Counted from the first letter of the stretch, positions 1 through 62,592 are shown. The stretch is 64,000 bases of DNA from an uncultured Candidatus Saccharibacteria bacterium (GCA_964356795.1 CAYHIK010000004.1:2743-66742); one strand, 5' to 3'. Made by a program: numbers and translations. Notes: generated from the letters alone by a model not told the origin.

Positions 1-96
1 GATGAGCACGGCAAACCCAATACCACGTATTCGCTCGCGATGCATACGTTTTTATTATCGCACATGTATTCGAATTTATTGAATAAAAAGTGGATA

Positions 97-130
97 TCAA
101 AAGCACCGCGCATGCGGTGCTTTTGATATG
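97..130. terminator. Palindromic hairpin with flanking A/T runs (bidirectional terminator-like)
   Basis: aaaagcaccgc-gcat-gcggtgctttt is a perfect 11-bp inverted repeat with an A-run before and a T-run after. Confidence 0.4.
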
Positions 131-187
131 TATCACGCTCACAGTCCGCATCAGCGGTATACGCGCTCGTTCAGGGTGCGTAACGCA

Positions 188-235
188 CTACGGCCTACTG
201 GCCTTTAGTATTTCCTCGCTCTCGCTCGGTCATCG
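188..235. repeat. Partial third copy (C) of the conserved 5' block of repeats A/B
   Basis: cggcctactggcctttagtatttcctcgctctcgctcggtc matches cggcctactggcctcagtacttcctcgctcgcgctcggt at 60590-60628 and the block at 62318-62348. Confidence 0.45.
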
Positions 236-304
236 AAAAGCAGTGGGCTTTGGTACAGCAACTGAACATTGCGCATATCTAGGCTATTTTCTTGAACTTT
301 TGAA

Positions 305-410
305 ATCGAGTATGCCCATTCGAGCAGGCTTTCGGAGCGCGACGGCGCGAGAACGAGACGCCCCGCCAGTGAGGCGGGGACGTCGTACTGCTGGAGTGGG
401 TATGCTCGAT
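305..410 (+). repeat. Structured about 105-nt repeat element, copy 1 (candidate ncRNA)
   Basis: Core GGCTTTCGGAGCGCGACGGCGCGAGAACGAGAC, hairpin ccccgcc-AGTGA-ggcgggg, then GTCGTAC. A 14-bp outer stem (atcgagtatgccca/tgggtatgctcgat) has two G-T wobbles that pair only on the + strand. Confidence 0.5.
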
Positions 411-424
411 TGCAGAGCAACCAA

Positions 425-1942
425 CTAGCGAGCGTACTCCACGGAACGTGTCTCGCGGATGACGTTCACGCGGATTTCTCCAGGATACTTCATTTCCGTC
501 TCAATTCTCTGCGCAATATCACGTGCCAATTGAAGGGCAGCCATATCATCAATCTTACTTGGGGTCACAAAGACGCGAACCTCACGCCCCGCTTGAATGG
601 CATAGGACTTCTCCACTCCATCAAATGAGCCAGCGATGCGCTCCAAGTCCTCGAGACGCTTGAGGTAAATCTCAACCGTGTCGCGGCGAGCACCAGGGCG
701 TGCGCCAGAAATGGCGTCTGCGGCTTGCACGATGCGACTCTCCAGAGAACTGTATGGATATTCTTCGTGGTGCGCCTCCATGGCCTTGATAACTTTGTCA
801 TCGATGCCGAATTTGGCGAGAATCTTACGGCCAATTTCCACATGCGTACCCTGCACCTCATGGTCCACAGCCTTTCCGATATCGTGGAAGAGCGCGCCTT
901 TCTTGGAAACCATCACATCGGCGCCGACTTCAGCGGCGAGCATGCCGGCAACATGCGCCATTTCAGTGGAATGCACGAGCACATTCTGACCAAAGCTCGT
1001 TCTAAATGCGAGACGTCCGAGGAGATACACGAGCTTCGGATCTACCATACCCACACCACACTCGATGAGCGCAGCTTCTCCTGCCTGGCGAATCTTTTCA
1101 TTAATCTCAACGCGCGCCTTCTCGACGCACTCTTCAATCTTCGTCGGATGAATGCGGCCATCAGCGATGAGTTTCTCCAGCGCTATCTTTGCAATCTGTC
1201 GGCGCACTGGATCAAAGCCAGAGATAACCATCGTTCCTGGCGTATCATCGATGATGACATCAACACCGGTGAGGCGCTCGAGCGTCTTGATGTTTCTACC
1301 TTCTTTACCGATAATCTTTCCCTTCAATTCATCCGATGGCAAACTCACCACAGTCGTGGTGGCATCTGCAATATGTGAACCCGCGTATCGCTGAATAGAA
1401 AGCGTAAGAATTTCTTTTGCCTTCAGTTCGAGCTGTTCGCGATTCTCGCCATCAAGTTTTCGGAGCTGGTGATACAGGTCCTCGCGGTACTGCTCACTTA
1501 CTTTCGTCATGATTTGCTCCTTTGCCTGCTCTCGCCCCAAACCGCTCACCCGCTCGAGTTCAGTGATTTGCTTTGCGCGTACTTGCTCTAAGTCGGCCTT
1601 GATTGCTACGACCTCTTCGCCTTTTTGCTTGAGTGATGCTCGCTCGGATGCAACTTCTTTCGTGCGATCCTCGAGGTCGGTTTCTTTTTTCGTCAAAAGA
1701 TTCTCGATTCGGTCGAGTTGCTTTCGTCGGTCACCCTCTTCGCGCTTTGCATCCTCGAGCACTTTGAGTGCCTTATTGTTTGCTTCAAGCACAATATCTT
1801 GGGCTTTCGCCTTTGATTCGCTAATGAGTGTCTCTGCGCGAGACTCTGCTTGAGCTACCTTACGACTGGCGAGAAACTTCCTGAGAAAGAATCCTATAAG
1901 AAACCCGATGAGCACCGCGGGTATCGAGAGGGTCAAAGACAT
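425..1942 (-). CDS. rny: Ribonuclease Y (N-terminal TM helix, coiled coil, KH domain, HD domain)
   Basis: 505 aa. KH motif LKGKIIGKEGRNIK; HD domain HSTEMAHVAGMLAAE...HDIGK; N-terminal membrane anchor. Confidence 0.9.
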   Translation of the reverse strand: MSLTLSIPAVLIGFLIGFFLRKFLASRKVAQAESRAETLISESKAKAQDIVLEANNKALKVLEDAKREEGDRRKQLDRIENLLTKKETDLEDRTKEVASERASLKQKGEEVVAIKADLEQVRAKQITELERVSGLGREQAKEQIMTKVSEQYREDLYHQLRKLDGENREQLELKAKEILTLSIQRYAGSHIADATTTVVSLPSDELKGKIIGKEGRNIKTLERLTGVDVIIDDTPGTMVISGFDPVRRQIAKIALEKLIADGRIHPTKIEECVEKARVEINEKIRQAGEAALIECGVGMVDPKLVYLLGRLAFRTSFGQNVLVHSTEMAHVAGMLAAEVGADVMVSKKGALFHDIGKAVDHEVQGTHVEIGRKILAKFGIDDKVIKAMEAHHEEYPYSSLESRIVQAADAISGARPGARRDTVEIYLKRLEDLERIAGSFDGVEKSYAIQAGREVRVFVTPSKIDDMAALQLARDIAQRIETEMKYPGEIRVNVIRETRSVEYAR

Positions 1943-30600: not shown

Positions 30601-32132
30601 AGTAAATGAATGCCTTTTCGCGAGCGCTCAGTTATATCAAGCGCGAGTTTCATATACGCGCTCTGGAGAAGTTCTGGCGCGATTTCGTATCGCACACCTG
30701 TCAGATGCTTCACATTCAACGCGAATTGAAGTGCTGGTGGATCAAATGATTCGTCGCTGAGCAAGGAGTAATACATGTCCTGAATCTGCATCGAGAAATC
30801 TGTGTACTCCATACGCACGCCCGACATACGCTCCAATTGCGGAATAATGGAGAGGACCTCTCGGCGGTTCTCATGTGAATCCCCTCGACACGCACTTAGG
30901 GTCAATTCCCAATACGCGAAGCGCATAAGCGACGGCAAGCGTTCCGTTTCTGTGTAGCGCTCCAATGCATTCATGACCCGCTTCATCGACGCGAGCATCG
31001 CTGAGTGTTGATGCTCGCGCCCACTGAAATAGCGCCAGCCACCTATAAATTCAATCATGGAAGCTTGCACCCCTGGATGCAGAAAGGATTCGGCATCACC
31101 TGCTTGAATTCCCGCAAAATCAAGAGGAGTGATTTCTGTGCCACCATACGGCGAGCGAGCAGCCTTATTAAGATACGAAATGTGATGATCAATCTTCGCA
31201 ATTTCTTGCTGGTCAGATGCACGCACCCGGAGAGCGCGGAATAGACGCACGAAGTCAGTCGCAATCGCATGCGTCCTATACCGATCCCCGTACTCACCTA
31301 CTTTGAGTTTATATGCGTGAAATAATTCTAGGATTGCATCGGCATCATGCGCTGATCCGATTCGCGTGAAGATAGTCCTAAACACCTCAGACGATGCAGG
31401 GCGAGCCATGACAGTATCGAGCGAAAAAAGATTCATAATACGCCCTGCGAGCGCAGGGGTTGCCATGTAGGGAACCATCCTGATGCACGTAGTGAGCCGG
31501 TCCACGTCCACGGCACCGGATTGAGCATATGCGATCACGTGCTCGAGTGCTTGAGCTCCGTTATCACGAAGTCGACGACGAAGCTCGACAATATACTCCG
31601 CTTCCCGATTCTCGCGTTCATGTCCCGCCCCGTAGTACTCATCACTGGGATCAATATAGGGGGGATCGTAGAAAGCCCGGTGGTCCACGCACGCCTGTAA
31701 GAGCTTGGCAACGCGCTCTCCCTCCTCTTCTTGCGTAGCGCGCTCAAGCTTTGCAGTGTCTCGACGACGCAAAGCCTCGCGCCCCCACTCAAAAACATCG
31801 AAATCATGTATATCATCGGGTACAAGCTCCGCAATAAGCTGACCCTCCATGGGATTGTCTGGATCGGTATCGGTAAGAATGACGACGCGATACGCTACAC
31901 CCTCCTTAAGTGCTTCGCCACCTGGAGGCGGTGTGTACGTAATAATCTTCCGGTCAGGCGCGCTACTCTTGTATATGACGCCTCCGTGCTTTGTGGTAAA
32001 TCGTCGGAATGTAACGTCAAGAAACACTCGCCCCTCCAGCCCAAGAGGGCTCACCTCATGTGATGGTTGAGATTCTGGCTGATGTTCTGTATGAGAGTGC
32101 CCCTGCGCGCCTTCTGTCATGCCTATTGACAA
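27573..32132 (-). CDS. Very large (1519 aa) hypothetical protein with internal about 60-aa tandem repeats
   Basis: Uninterrupted 4.56-kb ORF. Four repeats carry the [LV][TS]GIEP[DN]F motif at about aa 520-760; no P-loop, nuclease or TM motif seen; its 3' end overlaps the S51 peptidase gene by 37 bp. Confidence 0.6.
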   Translation of the reverse strand: MSIGMTEGAQGHSHTEHQPESQPSHEVSPLGLEGRVFLDVTFRRFTTKHGGVIYKSSAPDRKIITYTPPPGGEALKEGVAYRVVILTDTDPDNPMEGQLIAELVPDDIHDFDVFEWGREALRRRDTAKLERATQEEEGERVAKLLQACVDHRAFYDPPYIDPSDEYYGAGHERENREAEYIVELRRRLRDNGAQALEHVIAYAQSGAVDVDRLTTCIRMVPYMATPALAGRIMNLFSLDTVMARPASSEVFRTIFTRIGSAHDADAILELFHAYKLKVGEYGDRYRTHAIATDFVRLFRALRVRASDQQEIAKIDHHISYLNKAARSPYGGTEITPLDFAGIQAGDAESFLHPGVQASMIEFIGGWRYFSGREHQHSAMLASMKRVMNALERYTETERLPSLMRFAYWELTLSACRGDSHENRREVLSIIPQLERMSGVRMEYTDFSMQIQDMYYSLLSDESFDPPALQFALNVKHLTGVRYEIAPELLQSAYMKLALDITERSRKGIHLLQEITGIEPNFEAIEPAIQQQYEDIILQAEGLTYQYHYGRQLQLDAAVRLLEATAIRPRIEASKMHARYKTWLRSPNLRMTDVIRLAAELTGIEPDFSLYKDAIHERYSRLREGIRKEIPNTPQDLIALRDVSGIESDFSEKQVVELIISLCRFSSMPNPIDVVRRVTSIRPDFTKHSGEMQHAYIALIRGMRTLGFYPTLERLKAFHNVVSAGFASTDAEFETLATELFDRARGDGHIAGLLEVDQYVPSPELMTCIVGKIIAYELPGTKSNLLASAFGKLKLLGSRARIDSLGSAVLKSAYSDPGQAVAILKNLNDDTLSREYPDEMSLIRSAIQHDPFFGALSRIANIQGFAQNVANDPWTSEFIPLLKELTSSGVVRVENKDDMAMLVSFVELVGMRNTPALFRFYADCQRHRNLDSLSGESLEECSEFGIEARRKSGGWRFKDSLELFNAVYKSLGTMQSTMLKDEIPGGIESSLGEELFSRLKGTTQFERGDSVSDILDAYRKTVRLRPALAKLPIGFQEASMDIPLARQAREKSKDQSEALSAFLVSQEVVDVYEPLAEAWGDAGLFSVLDLLDSAHHRLLDEENTLRSLLASAPEEIEIAIRDEGDLKKKQELIRKSKALQNPRGRIGIERQAGALKEMSKNIQTILDVLYESEQGEPDIVAALESMAELDGPISLAKDIRALSAVHALQTMESTNWGDVVATLALWRDDEPTAERIYGVHALSKDYIEEHYLHHFQDPDHTEHTPFSPALLEKLNQVWLQKLDPRTGYLPITALKRKLDDILGVGTSQPVKSVSVSLVPVSGLLHIFSGDLGDSCHTSRHREIAEGEYPNLRTWVYASNRGKDNEELRGSVLAIMAKSKESKVPVLVVRANNPTENFIRTLDADAFVLSSLKEAIATARRMRAERMRAGGSVTLWDSHAVVAIPMDMRGMASTNRQPINDVYRARFKHCRPMGLVRTNETTFNSYMVHDKRGDTPAVVIWEMDADGNETWHGDWTLQKTT

Positions 32133-32239
32133 TTATGCTGTTATATGCTATACTTAATCCAGAATTTAGTGTAATTTCCGTACCGAGTCGCCGGGGGCAA
32201 AGCTACCTAGCCATGGAAGCGCCAACGGATCTCGGCCTA

Positions 32240-32263
32240 CCCCTCTTATATATAAGAGGGGTA
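32240..32263. terminator. Perfect 24-bp palindrome (bidirectional terminator-like)
   Basis: ACCCCTCTTATATATAAGAGGGGT. Confidence 0.5.
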
Positions 32264-32334
32264 TTTTGTATCTTGTCCTCCCCGAATCTAGATTAAGTAT
32301 ACCAAACAAAAAGAAAAACTACATTTGATGAATA

Positions 32335-36865: not shown

Positions 36866-37384
36866 CTACTTACTGATCTTGACGGCAACCATGGAGCTCG
36901 GCACGCCGCGCTCCCAGAGGAGGTTACCCCAGACAGTCACCTTTCCGCGGGTGACACCGATTTTGACGCCATCCCCGAGAAACGTTTGATGGTAGTAACC
37001 AACGGTCCAGTCCTTGTACACCGTACAGTCACCAACGACGCGATACCACGTATCGCTCGCACCATGCTCTCGCATGACCGACAACGAAAAGCGGTTGCGT
37101 CCGAGCCACAGCGTCTCGGCGTATCGAGCGCCACCGCTCTCCACGCCGACATTCACGCCGAGCTCACTCCACGACGTGAGGGCCAGCGTTGGCCCCGCAT
37201 ACGCCTGTGCCCAATCCTGGTTGATCAGCGCGAACGATGACCACCCCAGCTTGCCACGCACCTTACCCGAGAGATACAGCTCGAATTCCGGACTTCCGCT
37301 GAGAAGCTTGAATTCGGCGAAATCTCCCGCGAACGCCGGCGTAGCCATGGACAACAGCAGAATCACCAACATGAGACGCTTCAT
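36866..37384 (-). CDS. Secreted hypothetical protein
   Basis: Start set at MKRLMLVILLLSMATPAFA (signal peptide); beta-rich. Confidence 0.4.
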   Translation of the reverse strand: MKRLMLVILLLSMATPAFAGDFAEFKLLSGSPEFELYLSGKVRGKLGWSSFALINQDWAQAYAGPTLALTSWSELGVNVGVESGGARYAETLWLGRNRFSLSVMREHGASDTWYRVVGDCTVYKDWTVGYYHQTFLGDGVKIGVTRGKVTVWGNLLWERGVPSSMVAVKISK

Positions 37385-37848: not shown

Positions 37849-38601
37849 ATGGAATACCTCATCTACGCCGTGGTAGCGCTTGTACTCGCAAGCCTCCGGC
37901 AAATCAACCAGTATCAACGCGGAGTCCGCTTCACCATGGGACGCTACTCCGGCATCATGCACCCTGGATGGCGCATCGTATGGCCTATTTTCCAGACATA
38001 CCGAAAAGTCGATATTCGCGTCAAAGCAGTTGATGTGCCTGACCAGAAAGCAATTACGCGCGACAACGTATCGGTCACGGTAAACGCGGTGCTCTACTAC
38101 AAAGTCGCTGATGCAGCAAAGGCAACAATCGAAGTAGAAGATTTCCGCTATGCAATCTCACAGTACGCACAGACCACGATGCGCAACATCATCGGCGAGG
38201 CAACGCTCGATGAACTTCTCGCCGGTCGTGAACAGATCGCAGAACGCATCCGCGACATCGTCGATAAAGAAACGGACGAATGGGGGCTCAAGGTAAGCAA
38301 CGTTGAGCTCAAGGACGTATCACTCCCCGGAGACATGGAGCGCACGATTGCAAAACAAGCGGAAGCAGAACGTGAAAAGCGTGCCGTCATCATTAATTCA
38401 GAAGGAGAGCTTGGCGCAGCACAAAATATGGCAAAAGCTGCTGAAATTCTCTCTGCAGTACCGGGCGCACTCCACCTGCGCACACTACAGAGCATCAATG
38501 ACATCTCATCTGATCAATCCAACACGGTCGTATTCGCTGTCCCCCTCGAGACGCTCAAAGCGCTCTCCGGTTTCGTAGAAAAGATAAAGAAAGTCGAGTA
38601 G
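37849..38601 (+). CDS. SPFH/Band-7 (stomatin/HflC-like) family protein
   Basis: N-terminal TM; SPFH core VKAVDVPDQKAITRDNVSVTVNAVLYYKV; C-terminal coiled coil AKQAEAEREKRA. Confidence 0.8.
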   Translation: MEYLIYAVVALVLASLRQINQYQRGVRFTMGRYSGIMHPGWRIVWPIFQTYRKVDIRVKAVDVPDQKAITRDNVSVTVNAVLYYKVADAAKATIEVEDFRYAISQYAQTTMRNIIGEATLDELLAGREQIAERIRDIVDKETDEWGLKVSNVELKDVSLPGDMERTIAKQAEAEREKRAVIINSEGELGAAQNMAKAAEILSAVPGALHLRTLQSINDISSDQSNTVVFAVPLETLKALSGFVEKIKKVE

Positions 38602-38618
38602 CTTCGACATGGCGAAAT

Positions 38619-38724
38619 GAATCCTAATACCCCTATGAGGGGCTTTCGGAGCGCGGCGGCGCGAGAACGAGACACTCCGCCAGTCAGGCGGAGATGTCGT
38701 ACCCGAAAAGGGGTATTAGGATTC
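38619..38724 (+). repeat. Structured about 105-nt repeat element, copy 2
   Basis: Perfect 16-bp outer stem gaatcctaatacccct/aggggtattaggattc; same core GGCTTTCGGAGCGCGGCGGCGCGAGAACGAGAC; hairpin ctccgcc-AGTCA-ggcggag; GTCGTAC. Confidence 0.55.
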
Positions 38725-38740
38725 ACTTCGCCTATCTCTG

Positions 38741-39331
38741 CTACTTCTTGATGAATTCCAAGGTGTCCTGCCAGGGAATGTTATCGTGCCCTAGAATGGC
38801 ATACTGACCGATACTCACAAACGCGAATCGATCAGGAAACTTCGGATTGTAGAGGAAATACCGAATACCATTCACCTGGTCATACTTTGGATTGCACAGC
38901 TCGTAGTTCGCGAACCATGACTCTTCGTCATTAGTTGAACGAGGATAGGTAATTTCTGCGACCTCATATCCGCCGATGATGTTCGAGGGAGTAACTTCAA
39001 TCTTGCACTGATTCGATGGGTACTCTGCAAGAATCTGTCGTCGAATAGACGTCCCAAACGTCTCATCGGTTCGCTTCGTGAACATCTCAATTGACTGCCC
39101 CGTCTCAATCGCTGCATCGCCCGCCGCGAGATACACTTTATTCCCGATTTCCTGCACCTTCAGCGTTGCGCCCTCGTAGGGGTTAATGACGTATTGAAAT
39201 CGAATGCCGAGCGCTTTGGAGGTAAATACCGCAACACCCTCCGCGGGCGCATTTGCGTACTGCGTAGATACATAGAATCCAACAGCTACGGCTATGACAG
39301 AGAGAACGATAACTCCAAGTACTTTTTTCAT
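38741..39331 (-). CDS. Membrane-anchored/secreted hypothetical protein
   Basis: N-terminal TM MKKVLGVIVLSVIAVAVGFYV; no motif. Confidence 0.4.
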   Translation of the reverse strand: MKKVLGVIVLSVIAVAVGFYVSTQYANAPAEGVAVFTSKALGIRFQYVINPYEGATLKVQEIGNKVYLAAGDAAIETGQSIEMFTKRTDETFGTSIRRQILAEYPSNQCKIEVTPSNIIGGYEVAEITYPRSTNDEESWFANYELCNPKYDQVNGIRYFLYNPKFPDRFAFVSIGQYAILGHDNIPWQDTLEFIKK

Positions 39332-44191: not shown

Positions 44192-44551
44192 CTACGCGGC
44201 CACACGCACAGATACATGCAACAAGCAGTCACACGGCTTACCCTTCAGAATCTCTTTCTGCTCACTCACAGTATTGATAAATACCTCCTGACTTCCCTCG
44301 CCAGTGGCGAGCGCCTCATCAAGCGGCGTATGGTGATTGTATCCACGGCGCGCAAATTCATGCACCAGTGCCTCGTGGCGCGCGTAGAGTGCTTTCTGCT
44401 TTCCAATCCATCGAATTGTCTCCGGATGGCGCGAATACCCGCCCACGCCTCCGTGTTTGGTGAGAATATTCCAAAGCCCATGCAACTCGCGATGTTCAGC
44501 GAGTAAGTGCTTCCGACATAAATGTTGTGGATGTATATCCCAGACTCTCAT
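44192..44551 (-). CDS. Pyrimidine dimer DNA glycosylase (T4 endonuclease V/DenV-like) family protein
   Basis: MRVWDIHPQHLCRKHLLAEHRELHGLW resembles T4 EndoV ...SELADQHLMAEYRELPRVF. Confidence 0.5.
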   Translation of the reverse strand: MRVWDIHPQHLCRKHLLAEHRELHGLWNILTKHGGVGGYSRHPETIRWIGKQKALYARHEALVHEFARRGYNHHTPLDEALATGEGSQEVFINTVSEQKEILKGKPCDCLLHVSVRVAA

Positions 44552-44591: not shown

Positions 44592-44713
44592 GCGAAGATA
44601 GATTCCCGTGCCCATACAAGAGGCTTTCGGAGCGCGACGGCGCGAGAATGAGACGGCTCGGCAGTAAGCCGAGAACGTCGTACCCGAGAATGGGTATGGG
44701 AATATATCTTCGC
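44592..44713 (+). repeat. Structured repeat element, copy 3
   Basis: Core GGCTTTCGGAGCGCGACGGCGCGAGAATGAGAC; hairpin ctcggc-AGTAA-gccgag; GTCGTAC; 13-bp outer stem attcccgtgccca/tgggtatgggaat with two G-T wobbles (+ strand), extended by gcgaagata/tatcttcgc. Confidence 0.5.
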
Positions 44714-60574: not shown

Positions 60575-60798
60575 GTTTGCTGCACATTCGGCCTACTGGC
60601 CTCAGTACTTCCTCGCTCGCGCTCGGTTGCGGGACTTGGATTCACCGTCGGTCAAGGCGTCGTCAGTCACTCCGCCTCGCCTCACGGCTCCGGCCCTCAC
60701 GGTATCATTTACTAATGATACATCGTTCCGGGCTTCGAATCCAAGCCCTCCATCAACCAGCGAATATAAAACACCCGAAGTGGGTGTTTTATATTCGT
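60571..60798. repeat. Repeat A (about 230 bp): conserved blocks, a 17-nt copy of the tRNA-Gln 3' end, a covarying hairpin and a palindromic terminator
   Basis: About 85-90% identical to 62291-62521 outside two variable hairpins; contains tgcgggacttggattc (the tRNA 3' end) and gaatataaaacacccgaagtgggtgttttatattc. Confidence 0.7.
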
Positions 60799-62294: not shown

Positions 62295-62521
62295 GTTTGC
62301 TGCACATTCAGTCTGCTAGCCTCAGTACTTCCTCGCTCGCGCTCGGTCGCGGGGCTTGGATTCACCCGCCACTCTCGATGCCACCAGTCGTGGCATCTCG
62401 GTTCTGGGCTCCGGCCCTCACGGCCACATCAGCTGATGTGGCATCGTTCCGGGCTTCGAATCCAAGCCCTCCATCAAACAGCGAATATAAAACACCCGAA
62501 GTGGGTGTTTTATATTCGTAG
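62291..62521. repeat. Repeat B (about 230 bp), abutting the 3' end of tRNA-Gln
   Basis: See repeat A; contains gcggggcttggattcacc (tRNA 3'-end-like) and the covarying hairpin ccacatc-agc-tgatgtgg, where A has tatcatt-tact-aatgata. Confidence 0.7.
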
Positions 62522-62592
62522 CTGCGGGACTTGGATTCGAACCAAGATAGGCGGATCCAAAATCCGCAGTCCTACCATTAGACGACCCCGCA
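62522..62592 (-). tRNA. tRNA-Gln (anticodon UUG)
   Basis: Minus strand TGCGGGG-TC-GTCT-AATGGTA-GGAC-T-GCGGA-TTTTGGA-TCCGC-CTAT-CTTGG-TTCGAAT-CCAAG-TCCCGCA-G. U1:A72 as in bacterial tRNA-Gln; T-loop TTCGAAT; anticodon loop with U33 then UUG. Confidence 0.8.

Follow-up and report, generated by a model that had tools for sequence, protein, structure and literature searches.

The stretch of DNA analysed here, called the window throughout, comprises 64,000 nt of one strand from an uncultured Candidatus Saccharibacteria bacterium, and coordinates are counted from its first letter. It carries three copies of a long hairpin, the second of which (38611-38732) is the element under study, and this hairpin belongs to a Patescibacteria-wide family of non-coding hairpin elements that has previously not been catalogued. 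To our knowledge bacteria within the Candidate Phyla Radiation (CPR) have genomes that rank among the smallest and most densely packed, and next to nothing has been learned about their non-coding DNA. The three copies are spaced by 38 kb and then 6 kb among housekeeping genes. Copy 2 fills a convergent gap, beginning 10 nt after the stop codon of an SPFH gene (+ strand, stop at 38599-38601) and ending 9 nt from the stop codon of a 196-aa gene on the - strand (stop at 38741-38743). The initial annotation had placed all copies at the 3' ends of genes, and this is correct for copy 2 but not for the other two. Copy 1 lies 15 nt past the stop codon of rny (425-1942, - strand), but on the opposite strand, and is thus antisense to it. 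The DenV-like gene at 44192-44551 is also on the - strand, and copy 3 therefore lies 41 nt upstream of its start codon and not at its 3' end; since copy 3 is also downstream of the next - strand gene, it is antisense to both neighbours.

Copy 1 sits inside the 3' untranslated region (UTR) of rny, upstream of a terminator hairpin at 94-129. This hairpin is perfect over 16 bp (ATATCAAAAGCACCGC-ATGC-GCGGTGCTTTTGATAT), has an A-run and a T-run at its flanks, and is likely a bidirectional terminator that ends the rny transcript, in which case the antisense of copy 1 forms part of the rny 3' UTR.

The three copies share the 33-nt core GGCTTTCGGAGCGCGRCGGCGCGAGAAYGAGAC, found at 327-359, 38641-38673 and 44622-44654, always on the + strand and with 0 mismatches, as compared to 0 matches in 100 dinucleotide-preserving shuffles. 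The common core and single orientation that had been described earlier were thus confirmed. With a covariance model trained on 41 family members, the same three copies and nothing else were detected in the window.

Each copy consists of a long stem of variable sequence, P1, and an apex in the form of a three-way junction, where two hairpins, P2 and P3, are connected by very short joining strands. The folds of the + strand have energies of -74.4, -73.2 and -65.6 kcal/mol for copies 1, 2 and 3, with z-scores against shuffles of -8.4, -7.9 and -7.4. The internal hairpins and enclosing stems are paired as first claimed, but the outer stem is longer than the 13-16 bp then given, with arms of 23-31 nt. 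Across the family the element is about 105-190 nt long and non-coding, and P1 is typically 20-30 bp, in some cases up to ~55 bp, free in sequence but with the pairing kept. P2 is built of a 3-bp helix (P2a), a purine internal loop with GGA opposite GA, a GCGC/GCGC stem (P2b) and a GNCG loop, and P3 of 4 + 7 bp (11 bp), in which a bulged A is almost invariant and the loop is in most cases C-AGYA-G. The P3 loops of the window copies read AGUGA, AGUCA and AGUAA, in order. The conserved unpaired bases are an A before P3, the bulged A in P3 and a G after P3. The parts of the three copies are as follows.

304-411, + strand: copy 1, whole hairpin element; covariance model 89.3 bits
304-326, + strand: copy 1, 5' arm of P1, pairing with 389-411 over 23 positions with 3 G-T pairs and 1 mismatch
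331-353, + strand: copy 1, P2 module, from the sequence as read and the covariation in P2a and P2b
331-333 (UUC) with 351-353 (GAA), + strand: copy 1, P2a
334-336 (GGA) and 349-350 (GA), + strand: copy 1, P2 internal loop
337-340 (GCGC) with 345-348 (GCGC), + strand: copy 1, P2b, closing the loop GACG at 341-344
357-384, + strand: copy 1, P3, with 4 bp, bulged A at 380, 7 bp and loop AGUGA
389-411, + strand: copy 1, 3' arm of P1, preceded by the junction bases GUA at 385-387
38611-38732, + strand: copy 2 (element under study), whole hairpin; covariance model 90.3 bits
38611-38641, + strand: copy 2, 5' arm of P1, 31 nt, pairing with 38702-38732 at 87% complementarity, including a perfect 16-bp block (38619-38634 with 38709-38724)
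38645-38667, + strand: copy 2, P2 module, with P2a formed by 38645-38647 and 38665-38667
38648-38650 (GGA) and 38663-38664 (GA), + strand: copy 2, P2 internal loop
38651-38654 (GCGC) and 38659-38662 (GCGC), + strand: copy 2, P2b, loop GGCG
38671-38698, + strand: copy 2, P3, with bulged A at 38694 and loop AGUCA
38702-38732, + strand: copy 2, 3' arm of P1, preceded by the junction bases GUA at 38699-38701
44592-44713, + strand: copy 3, whole hairpin element; covariance model 82.1 bits
44592-44615 and 44690-44713, + strand: copy 3, arms of P1
44626-44648, + strand: copy 3, P2 module, with P2a formed by 44626-44628 and 44646-44648
44629-44631 (GGA) and 44644-44645 (GA), + strand: copy 3, P2 internal loop
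44632-44635 (GCGC) and 44640-44643 (GCGC), + strand: copy 3, P2b, loop GACG
44652-44679, + strand: copy 3, P3, loop AGUAA

A fuzzy search of the window allowing up to 3 substitutions revealed no further true copy; its sole extra match, at 36897 on the - strand with 3 substitutions, is without the flanking P2a and P3 features. A pairing between UCG and CGA suggested by folds of single sequences was rejected, as the other copies do not keep it.

The alignment of the 41 copies shows that P1, P3 and P2a covary strongly. Standard pairs make up 91.2% of the pair cells, as compared to 38-56% when the partners are slid by 1-3 columns, changes on both sides are seen in 26 of 31 pairs, and the covariation score is 0.73 against 0.13-0.23 in the controls. 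The selection on secondary structure that had been proposed from the window copies is therefore well borne out. For P2 a second, independent sample was obtained by a metagenome scan with the 18-mer GGAGCGCGNCGGCGCGAG, giving 120 loci, of which about half are true members with low GC content and the remainder chance matches in high-GC DNA. P2a is formed by the three bases that precede the 18-mer, paired to the last G of the 18-mer together with the two bases that follow. In 59 distinct copies the middle pair of P2a is Watson-Crick in 95%, with all four pair types in use, and the next pair is Watson-Crick in 85% and G-U in another 7%, whereas controls in shifted register gave 17-44%. The covariation thus fixes the register of P2a, which places GGA opposite GA in the internal loop and rules out a canonical kink-turn: the asymmetry is of one base, and there is no three-base bulge. 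Tandem G-A pairs in this loop are possible, but the positions are invariant and give no covariation signal. In 809 kb of CPR DNA the structural pattern of P2 occurs 82 times with a GCGC stem and once with GCCU/AGGC; the latter belongs to a true family member and, as a double compensatory change, supports the P2b stem. Diverged true copies were found neither in the window nor in 380 kb of related loci, with the covariance model or with up to 3 substitutions.

The folding strand can be determined from the wobble pairs. When the 5' arm of P1 was aligned to the complement of the 3' arm, with a scoring blind to G:T versus A:C, the stems contained 49 G:T and only 15 A:C, which implies that the + strand is the one that folds. 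The asymmetry that the initial annotation had noticed in the G-T pairs of copies 1 and 3 consequently holds more generally in the family. Because of these G-T pairs, the + strand of copy 1 folds better than its - strand (-74.4 as compared to -53.5 kcal/mol), as does that of copy 3 (-65.6 as compared to -57.6 kcal/mol), and in most family copies the sense strand has the lower folding energy. The selected molecule is the strand carrying TTCGGAGCGCG, folded as RNA or as single-stranded DNA.

The folding strand was also found to be the C-rich strand of the surrounding 8 kb in 28 of 40 loci, the window and all Colwellbacteria copies included, although the copies are not independent. Such a preference may reflect a replication-strand bias. 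As an explanation of the element this was set aside, both for the lack of independence and since the direction is opposite to that expected of IS200/IS605-type elements.

The strong covariation in P1, P3 and P2a, the excess of G:U over A:C and the near-invariant 18-nt hairpin with a purine internal loop all agree with an expressed family of trans-acting structured small RNAs (sRNAs). The GA-type loop of P2 would then bind a conserved CPR protein, the RNA serving as a scaffold, sponge or guide-like particle, and P1 would be a processing or stabilising stem, for example a substrate of RNase III. We regard this as the main rival to the explanation favoured below, a possible one but less probable. 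Another thought is that the repeat contains a novel small self-cleaving ribozyme, with the junction and the GGA/GA loop as its active site. The hammerhead and twister motifs are often carried by repeats, and the features reminiscent of this are a three-way junction in which unpaired nucleotides are conserved, an internal loop that does not vary, many copies with a patchy distribution and the lack of a match to the known ribozyme families. However, nothing indicates a cleavage site, there is no covariation that would point to tertiary contacts, and the conserved part is a simple hairpin and not the core of the junction. The idea is one of pure analogy and appears very improbable.

To see how far the family extends, 185,579 genomes of bacteria and archaea, one for each species, were searched for exact matches to the 23-mer TTCGGAGCGCGNCGGCGCGAGAA. 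This gave 42 loci, 30 of them in named Patescibacteria (Niyogi-, Colwell-, Zambryski-, Yanofsky-, Pacei-/Parcubacteria and Saccharibacteria) and 12 in metagenome-assembled genomes classified only as 'bacterium', with 0 in other named phyla. The family's presence in Saccharibacteria is seen in the metagenome-assembled genomes of loci L003, L004, L012 and L030. Genomes differ in copy number, from none to 8 or more, and 8 copies lie on a single 645-kb Colwellbacteria scaffold. [quoted passage not shown]

Nor could the element be matched to known RNAs, just as stated earlier. Rfam 15 (4227 models) covers RNase P, signal recognition particle RNA, tmRNA, 6S, Y RNA, 5S, riboswitches and the hammerhead, twister, pistol, hatchet and hepatitis delta virus ribozymes, and over the whole window only a tRNA-Gln passes its gathering threshold. 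At E <= 10 the best match within 38560-38780 has 12.3 bits against a threshold of 50, and among 20 related loci no family was assigned to the element. ARAGORN finds only the same tRNA-Gln in the window, and by this detection the element is not tRNA- or tmRNA-like. A literature search for the core sequence, on both strands and in RNA and DNA spellings, gave no paper, and one by keyword found no description of the element. One match among 2.9 million viral contigs was a chance match in high-GC DNA, negative with the covariance model, and the element is not phage-borne. The fold, the polarity of the folding strand, the breadth of the family and the absence from Rfam are in our opinion solid.

The RNase Y encoded in the window also occurs on a contig from Hainich groundwater filtered at 0.1 um, and its closest relatives are annotated as Yanofskybacteria, Paceibacteria or Patescibacteria. 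In four relatives, with RNase Y 82-89% identical and the gene order mnmA-rny-HU kept, neither the covariance model nor a fuzzy motif search found a copy in 86 kb that includes the site downstream of rny, and in one of them (L167) a terminator follows directly after the rny stop codon. By contrast, a more distant genome in which RNase Y is 75% identical carries a copy, 16 nt downstream of rny and likewise antisense to it, and the gene downstream of that copy is a different one from that in the window. Such a distribution implies that copies were either lost repeatedly or gained independently at one and the same site. The absence from four close relatives also implies that the element is not a housekeeping RNA, which, like the variation from 0 to 8 or more copies per genome, speaks against the sRNA explanation. 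The only relative of the copy 3 neighbourhood that is 98% identical is a 2.5-kb contig that ends short of the element.

Copies within one genome have arm types in common. In Colwellbacteria the P1 types A, B and C and the P3 types 1 and 2 occur in mixed combinations. An unequal conservation of the two arms of P1 among paralogues was looked for and rejected, with 97 as compared to 104 differences. One Colwellbacteria locus (JACOWZ010000003.1; L023:2386-2552, - strand) contains a 165-nt hairpin that has type B outer arms in the same polarity but a different structure as its apical insert (-89 kcal/mol, z = -7.7, no Rfam family). This insert is unique among the loci fetched, and a type A copy follows directly after it.

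The orientation relative to the neighbouring genes varies. Of the 41 copies, 13 are antisense to both neighbours, 12 are sense to both, 12 lie in convergent gaps and 4 in divergent gaps, and they are usually found ~10-30 nt from a stop codon. That convergent gaps outnumber divergent ones, and that stop codons are so near, shows a preference for, or survival at, the 3' ends of genes. Surveys of the flanking genes (80 ORFs with 123 Pfam families, and 141 ORFs with 170) showed unrelated housekeeping genes, each family turning up at most 2-3 times; integrases, transposases and reverse transcriptases were missing from the 25 most recurrent families listed for either set. A linked enzyme gene was therefore rejected.

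It is conceivable that the element is simply a cis-acting hairpin at the 3' end of mRNA and tRNA transcripts that stops read-through or 3' exonucleases, as has been proposed for REP sequences, bacterial interspersed mosaic elements (BIMEs) and enterobacterial repetitive intergenic consensus (ERIC) sequences. A symmetric P1 stem would work in either orientation, and the preference for convergent gaps close to stop codons, the exact fit of copy 2 in its gap and the great stability of the stems are in line with such a role. However, none of the stems is followed by a U-run, as an intrinsic terminator would be, several copies have a separate canonical terminator beside them (94-129 in the window, L075 and L163), and copy 3 is upstream of a gene start. 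Furthermore, a plain hairpin leaves the asymmetric, ultra-conserved three-way junction and the wobble bias of one strand unexplained. We consider this alternative quite improbable.

The expression signals of an independent gene are also missing. Beside the window copies there is neither a sigma-70 promoter nor an intrinsic terminator, and no upstream motif is shared when the copies are aligned at the base of the stem; an sRNA gene with its own sigma-70 promoter was thus rejected. A gene on the opposite strand is found on the upstream side of 17 of the 41 copies, and 13 copies are antisense to both neighbours; this, and the antisense position of copy 1 within the rny 3' UTR, speak against an expressed RNA. 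The same genome does have good consensus promoters and terminators of the hairpin-plus-U type, for example within 32126-32270.

That region was seen to hold a near-consensus promoter at 32126-32154 on the + strand (TTGACA, 17 nt, TATACT), followed by ~110 nt of non-coding DNA and an 11-bp hairpin with a U-run (cccctcttatatataagagggg-tattttgt). The unit, 32126-32275, lies in a gap of 250 nt bordered by two - strand genes; it has the look of an independent small RNA gene, with no Rfam family at the gathering score. Two identical and perfect 16-bp hairpins, CGAATATAAAACACCC-5 nt-GGGTGTTTTATATTCG, were observed 1.7 kb apart at 60761-60797 and 62482-62518, the second adjoining the downstream end of the tRNA-Gln gene (62521-62592, - strand). 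Both resemble terminators, but why one is an exact duplicate of the other is unexplained. Mechanical ORF calling places ORFs over copies 1 and 2, at 90-428 (+ strand, 112 aa) and 38514-38726 (- strand, 70 aa), both of them almost certainly spurious, and the called genes of one relative include an 81-aa ORF in the gap after rny that is equivalent to the site of copy 1.

Many metagenome members, and a second copy in L003, are of another kind, here called class II, with the same P2 18-mer, a similar P3 and a short P1. Their positions are 28-100 nt downstream of tRNA genes, among which at least 9 identities are represented, always in the orientation of the tRNA, and they occur in tRNA clusters, beside RNase P RNA or between 16S rRNA and tRNA-Ile. 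Rfam recognises only the neighbours at these loci (tRNAs, tmRNA, RNase P, 5S and a group I intron). Two examples are:

L084:5096-5214: class II element
L003:519-660, - strand: class II element

The order in class II is the tRNA end T, a spacer, an inverted copy T', P2, P3 and a direct copy of T. In L003, L071, L084, L127 and L147 the 3' arm of P1 is an exact copy, 19-20 nt long, of the end of the tRNA gene, from C56 of the T-loop to the discriminator, and the 5' arm is an imperfect inverted copy, sometimes with a small side hairpin. P1 thereby reproduces the 3' strand of the acceptor and T-stem of the adjacent tRNA. The arrangement recurs in L098 with one mismatch and, more diverged, in L047; in L072 and L130 it is the 5' part of the following tRNA that is duplicated. 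The window copies have no duplication of a tRNA end of this kind.

Two of these loci are more complex. L072:1000-1280 shows a partial tRNA-Ile (5' acceptor strand and D-arm), a hairpin, the P2-P3 core and a piece of anticodon arm, with an intact tRNA-Ile ~60 nt further on, the whole region being downstream of the 3' end of 16S rRNA. L075:3790-4080 contains two class II units in tandem after tRNA-Ile, with a canonical terminator hairpin before the first, and GTGACCACAAAA follows both units. The second unit has arms from the 3' end of tRNA-Ile even though it does not adjoin the tRNA.

The class II topology is the one left when an attachment site borne on a hairpin of single-stranded DNA is integrated into a duplex target, an analogy that would make the tRNA end the target. 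Alternatively, P1 can be read as an RNA stem that mimics the acceptor/T-arm helix of the neighbouring tRNA. This would suit the sRNA explanation, where class II RNAs would be co-transcribed and processed with the tRNAs, and the constant co-orientation immediately 3' of tRNA genes, in some cases beside RNase P RNA or rRNA, agrees with it. The position after tRNA genes is also as expected of a 3'-end hairpin.

Taken together, we tentatively favour a non-autonomous insertion element, one that spreads in the form of a folded single strand and whose recognition module is P2. The reasons are that the copy number varies, close relatives lack copies and the orientation is independent of the neighbours, and furthermore that there are no expression signals and no linked gene, that modules are shuffled and that tRNA ends are duplicated. 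The element would multiply and move, within and between CPR genomes, as a folded strand carrying TTCGGAGCGCG. An enzyme whose gene lies elsewhere in the genome would recognise P2 and might also cut it, while P1 would need only to be a helix, and copies would persist where they are harmless, in the very short gaps at gene ends and in either orientation. The movement itself, the single-stranded intermediate (DNA like that of attC or CTX attP, or RNA) and the role of P2 as a protein recognition site are what we infer from these observations.

Several observations weigh against an insertion element. There is no empty site that can be aligned base for base, the intergenic DNA after rny being too diverged in the relatives, so that insertion is deduced from presence and absence and not from junctions. 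Direct repeats of at least 11 nt flank no class I copy, those of the window included; below that length, the stem ends are ambiguous for duplications of 2-9 bp. No candidate enzyme was found. The P2 18-mer owes part of its invariance to the search patterns used. The copies in the window are old, with P1 differing at 3-10 of 15 paired sites while the pairing is kept and P2 is identical, and two orthologous pairs in sister genomes show changes that preserve the structure (2 double compensatory, 6 single with the pair kept and 4 broken, in the outer stem; the numbers are small). Such old copies that are still paired, and such changes in situ between orthologues, fit a function at each locus at least as well as a purely selfish element and count in favour of an sRNA. 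A purine-rich internal loop beside a short GC hairpin is also a typical protein-binding motif of RNA, and class II occurs in clusters of tRNA and stable RNA genes, also where a real small RNA gene would sit. The two explanations are not exclusive, as an element that has spread can be domesticated.

A more far-reaching variant, which we think unlikely, is a new CPR-specific mobile element that has no genes and copies its target, or else a tRNA mimic. A hairpin of ~110-190 nt would have its stem rewritten as a copy and an inverted copy of the target, in class II the last 19 nt of the adjacent tRNA gene, and a host recombinase recognising the GGA/GA hairpin would integrate the folded single strand. 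The class I copies, among them those of the window, would then be spread or domesticated descendants. If true, this would amount to an 'attachment site without a genome', minimal in size and matched to its target. A route by way of a retro-element is less likely, since group II introns are reported to be absent from Patescibacteria (PMC13011429) and no reverse transcriptase was seen nearby.

Either the element is a parasite that has done very well in minimal genomes, or it belongs to a part of CPR RNA biology not yet recognised. Its 18-nt module is unchanged from Saccharibacteria to Parcubacteria and present in up to 8 or more copies per ~0.6-Mb scaffold, yet missing in close relatives, and the duplication of the adjacent tRNA 3' end in class II offers a concrete handle on insertion. 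In practice, the stems cause spurious ORF calls in automatic annotation, and the element, missing from Rfam, could serve as a marker of CPR contigs.

A comparison with known systems shows partial likeness to several of them. P2 has a potential for tandem sheared G-A pairs between short helices, as in the kink-turn and GA-motif modules of box C/D RNAs and L7Ae/L30e sites, but its loop has 3 nt opposite 2 nt where the canonical kink-turn has a 3-nt bulge. CPR genomes hold arrays of box C/D-like guides, the tandem interspaced guide RNA (TIGR)-Tas systems, in which tandem repeat-spacer arrays lie beside a Tas gene with a Nop domain (PMC12045711). A TIGR array was rejected here, as the units are single and dispersed and have no recurrent neighbour gene.

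The attC sites of integrons, for example the ~125-nt repeats of Vibrio cholerae, are of similar size, form an imperfect hairpin on one folding strand, are conserved in structure and not in sequence, and have a variable or branched apical structure. In contrast to attC, the apex of the element is conserved, the stem bases of the three window copies lack the RYYYAAC/GTTRRRY core sites, and the copies are dispersed with no integrase among the neighbours examined, as opposed to a cassette array with intI. The CTX phage is the established case of single-strand integration through a hairpin attachment site, with attC as a related case of hairpins recombined in a strand-specific way, and class II shares with this type of attP the order of target, inverted target, a loop of ~75 nt and target. 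The target of the Xer/CTX type is dif, however, and that of class II would be the tRNA gene from the T-loop to the 3' end. The element is furthermore only ~110-190 nt long and has no genes, the class I copies of the window have no target duplication, and a recombinase and a single-stranded form are unobserved for it.

REP sequences and BIMEs, with their REP-associated tyrosine transposases (RAYTs), are also intergenic palindromes at gene ends that may affect mRNA ends, and they have been proposed to be mobilised in trans as single-stranded hairpins, as we propose for the element. REPs are GC-rich, species-specific palindromes of 20-40 nt marked by a GTAG or CGTC tag, whereas the element is 105-190 nt, has no such tag at the base of its stem, and has the same core across CPR classes. 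MITEs, the ERIC or intergenic repeat unit (IRU) sequences, Correia elements and Rickettsia palindromic elements are, like the element, non-coding, ~100-170 nt, multi-copy and dispersed, and they form long imperfect hairpins in either orientation with a patchy distribution among relatives. The element is thus as short, non-coding, multi-copy and dispersed as a MITE, but its arms pair without having the conserved sequence of terminal inverted repeats, and no transposase of a parent insertion sequence is among the 25 most recurrent families listed from 221 flanking ORFs. In a MITE the termini are conserved and the centre is free, while here the central P2 is near-invariant throughout the superphylum and the arms vary in a compensatory manner. 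In size and behaviour the element resembles MITE, ERIC, REP and attC, but the logic is inverted: the centre is conserved and the arms are free.

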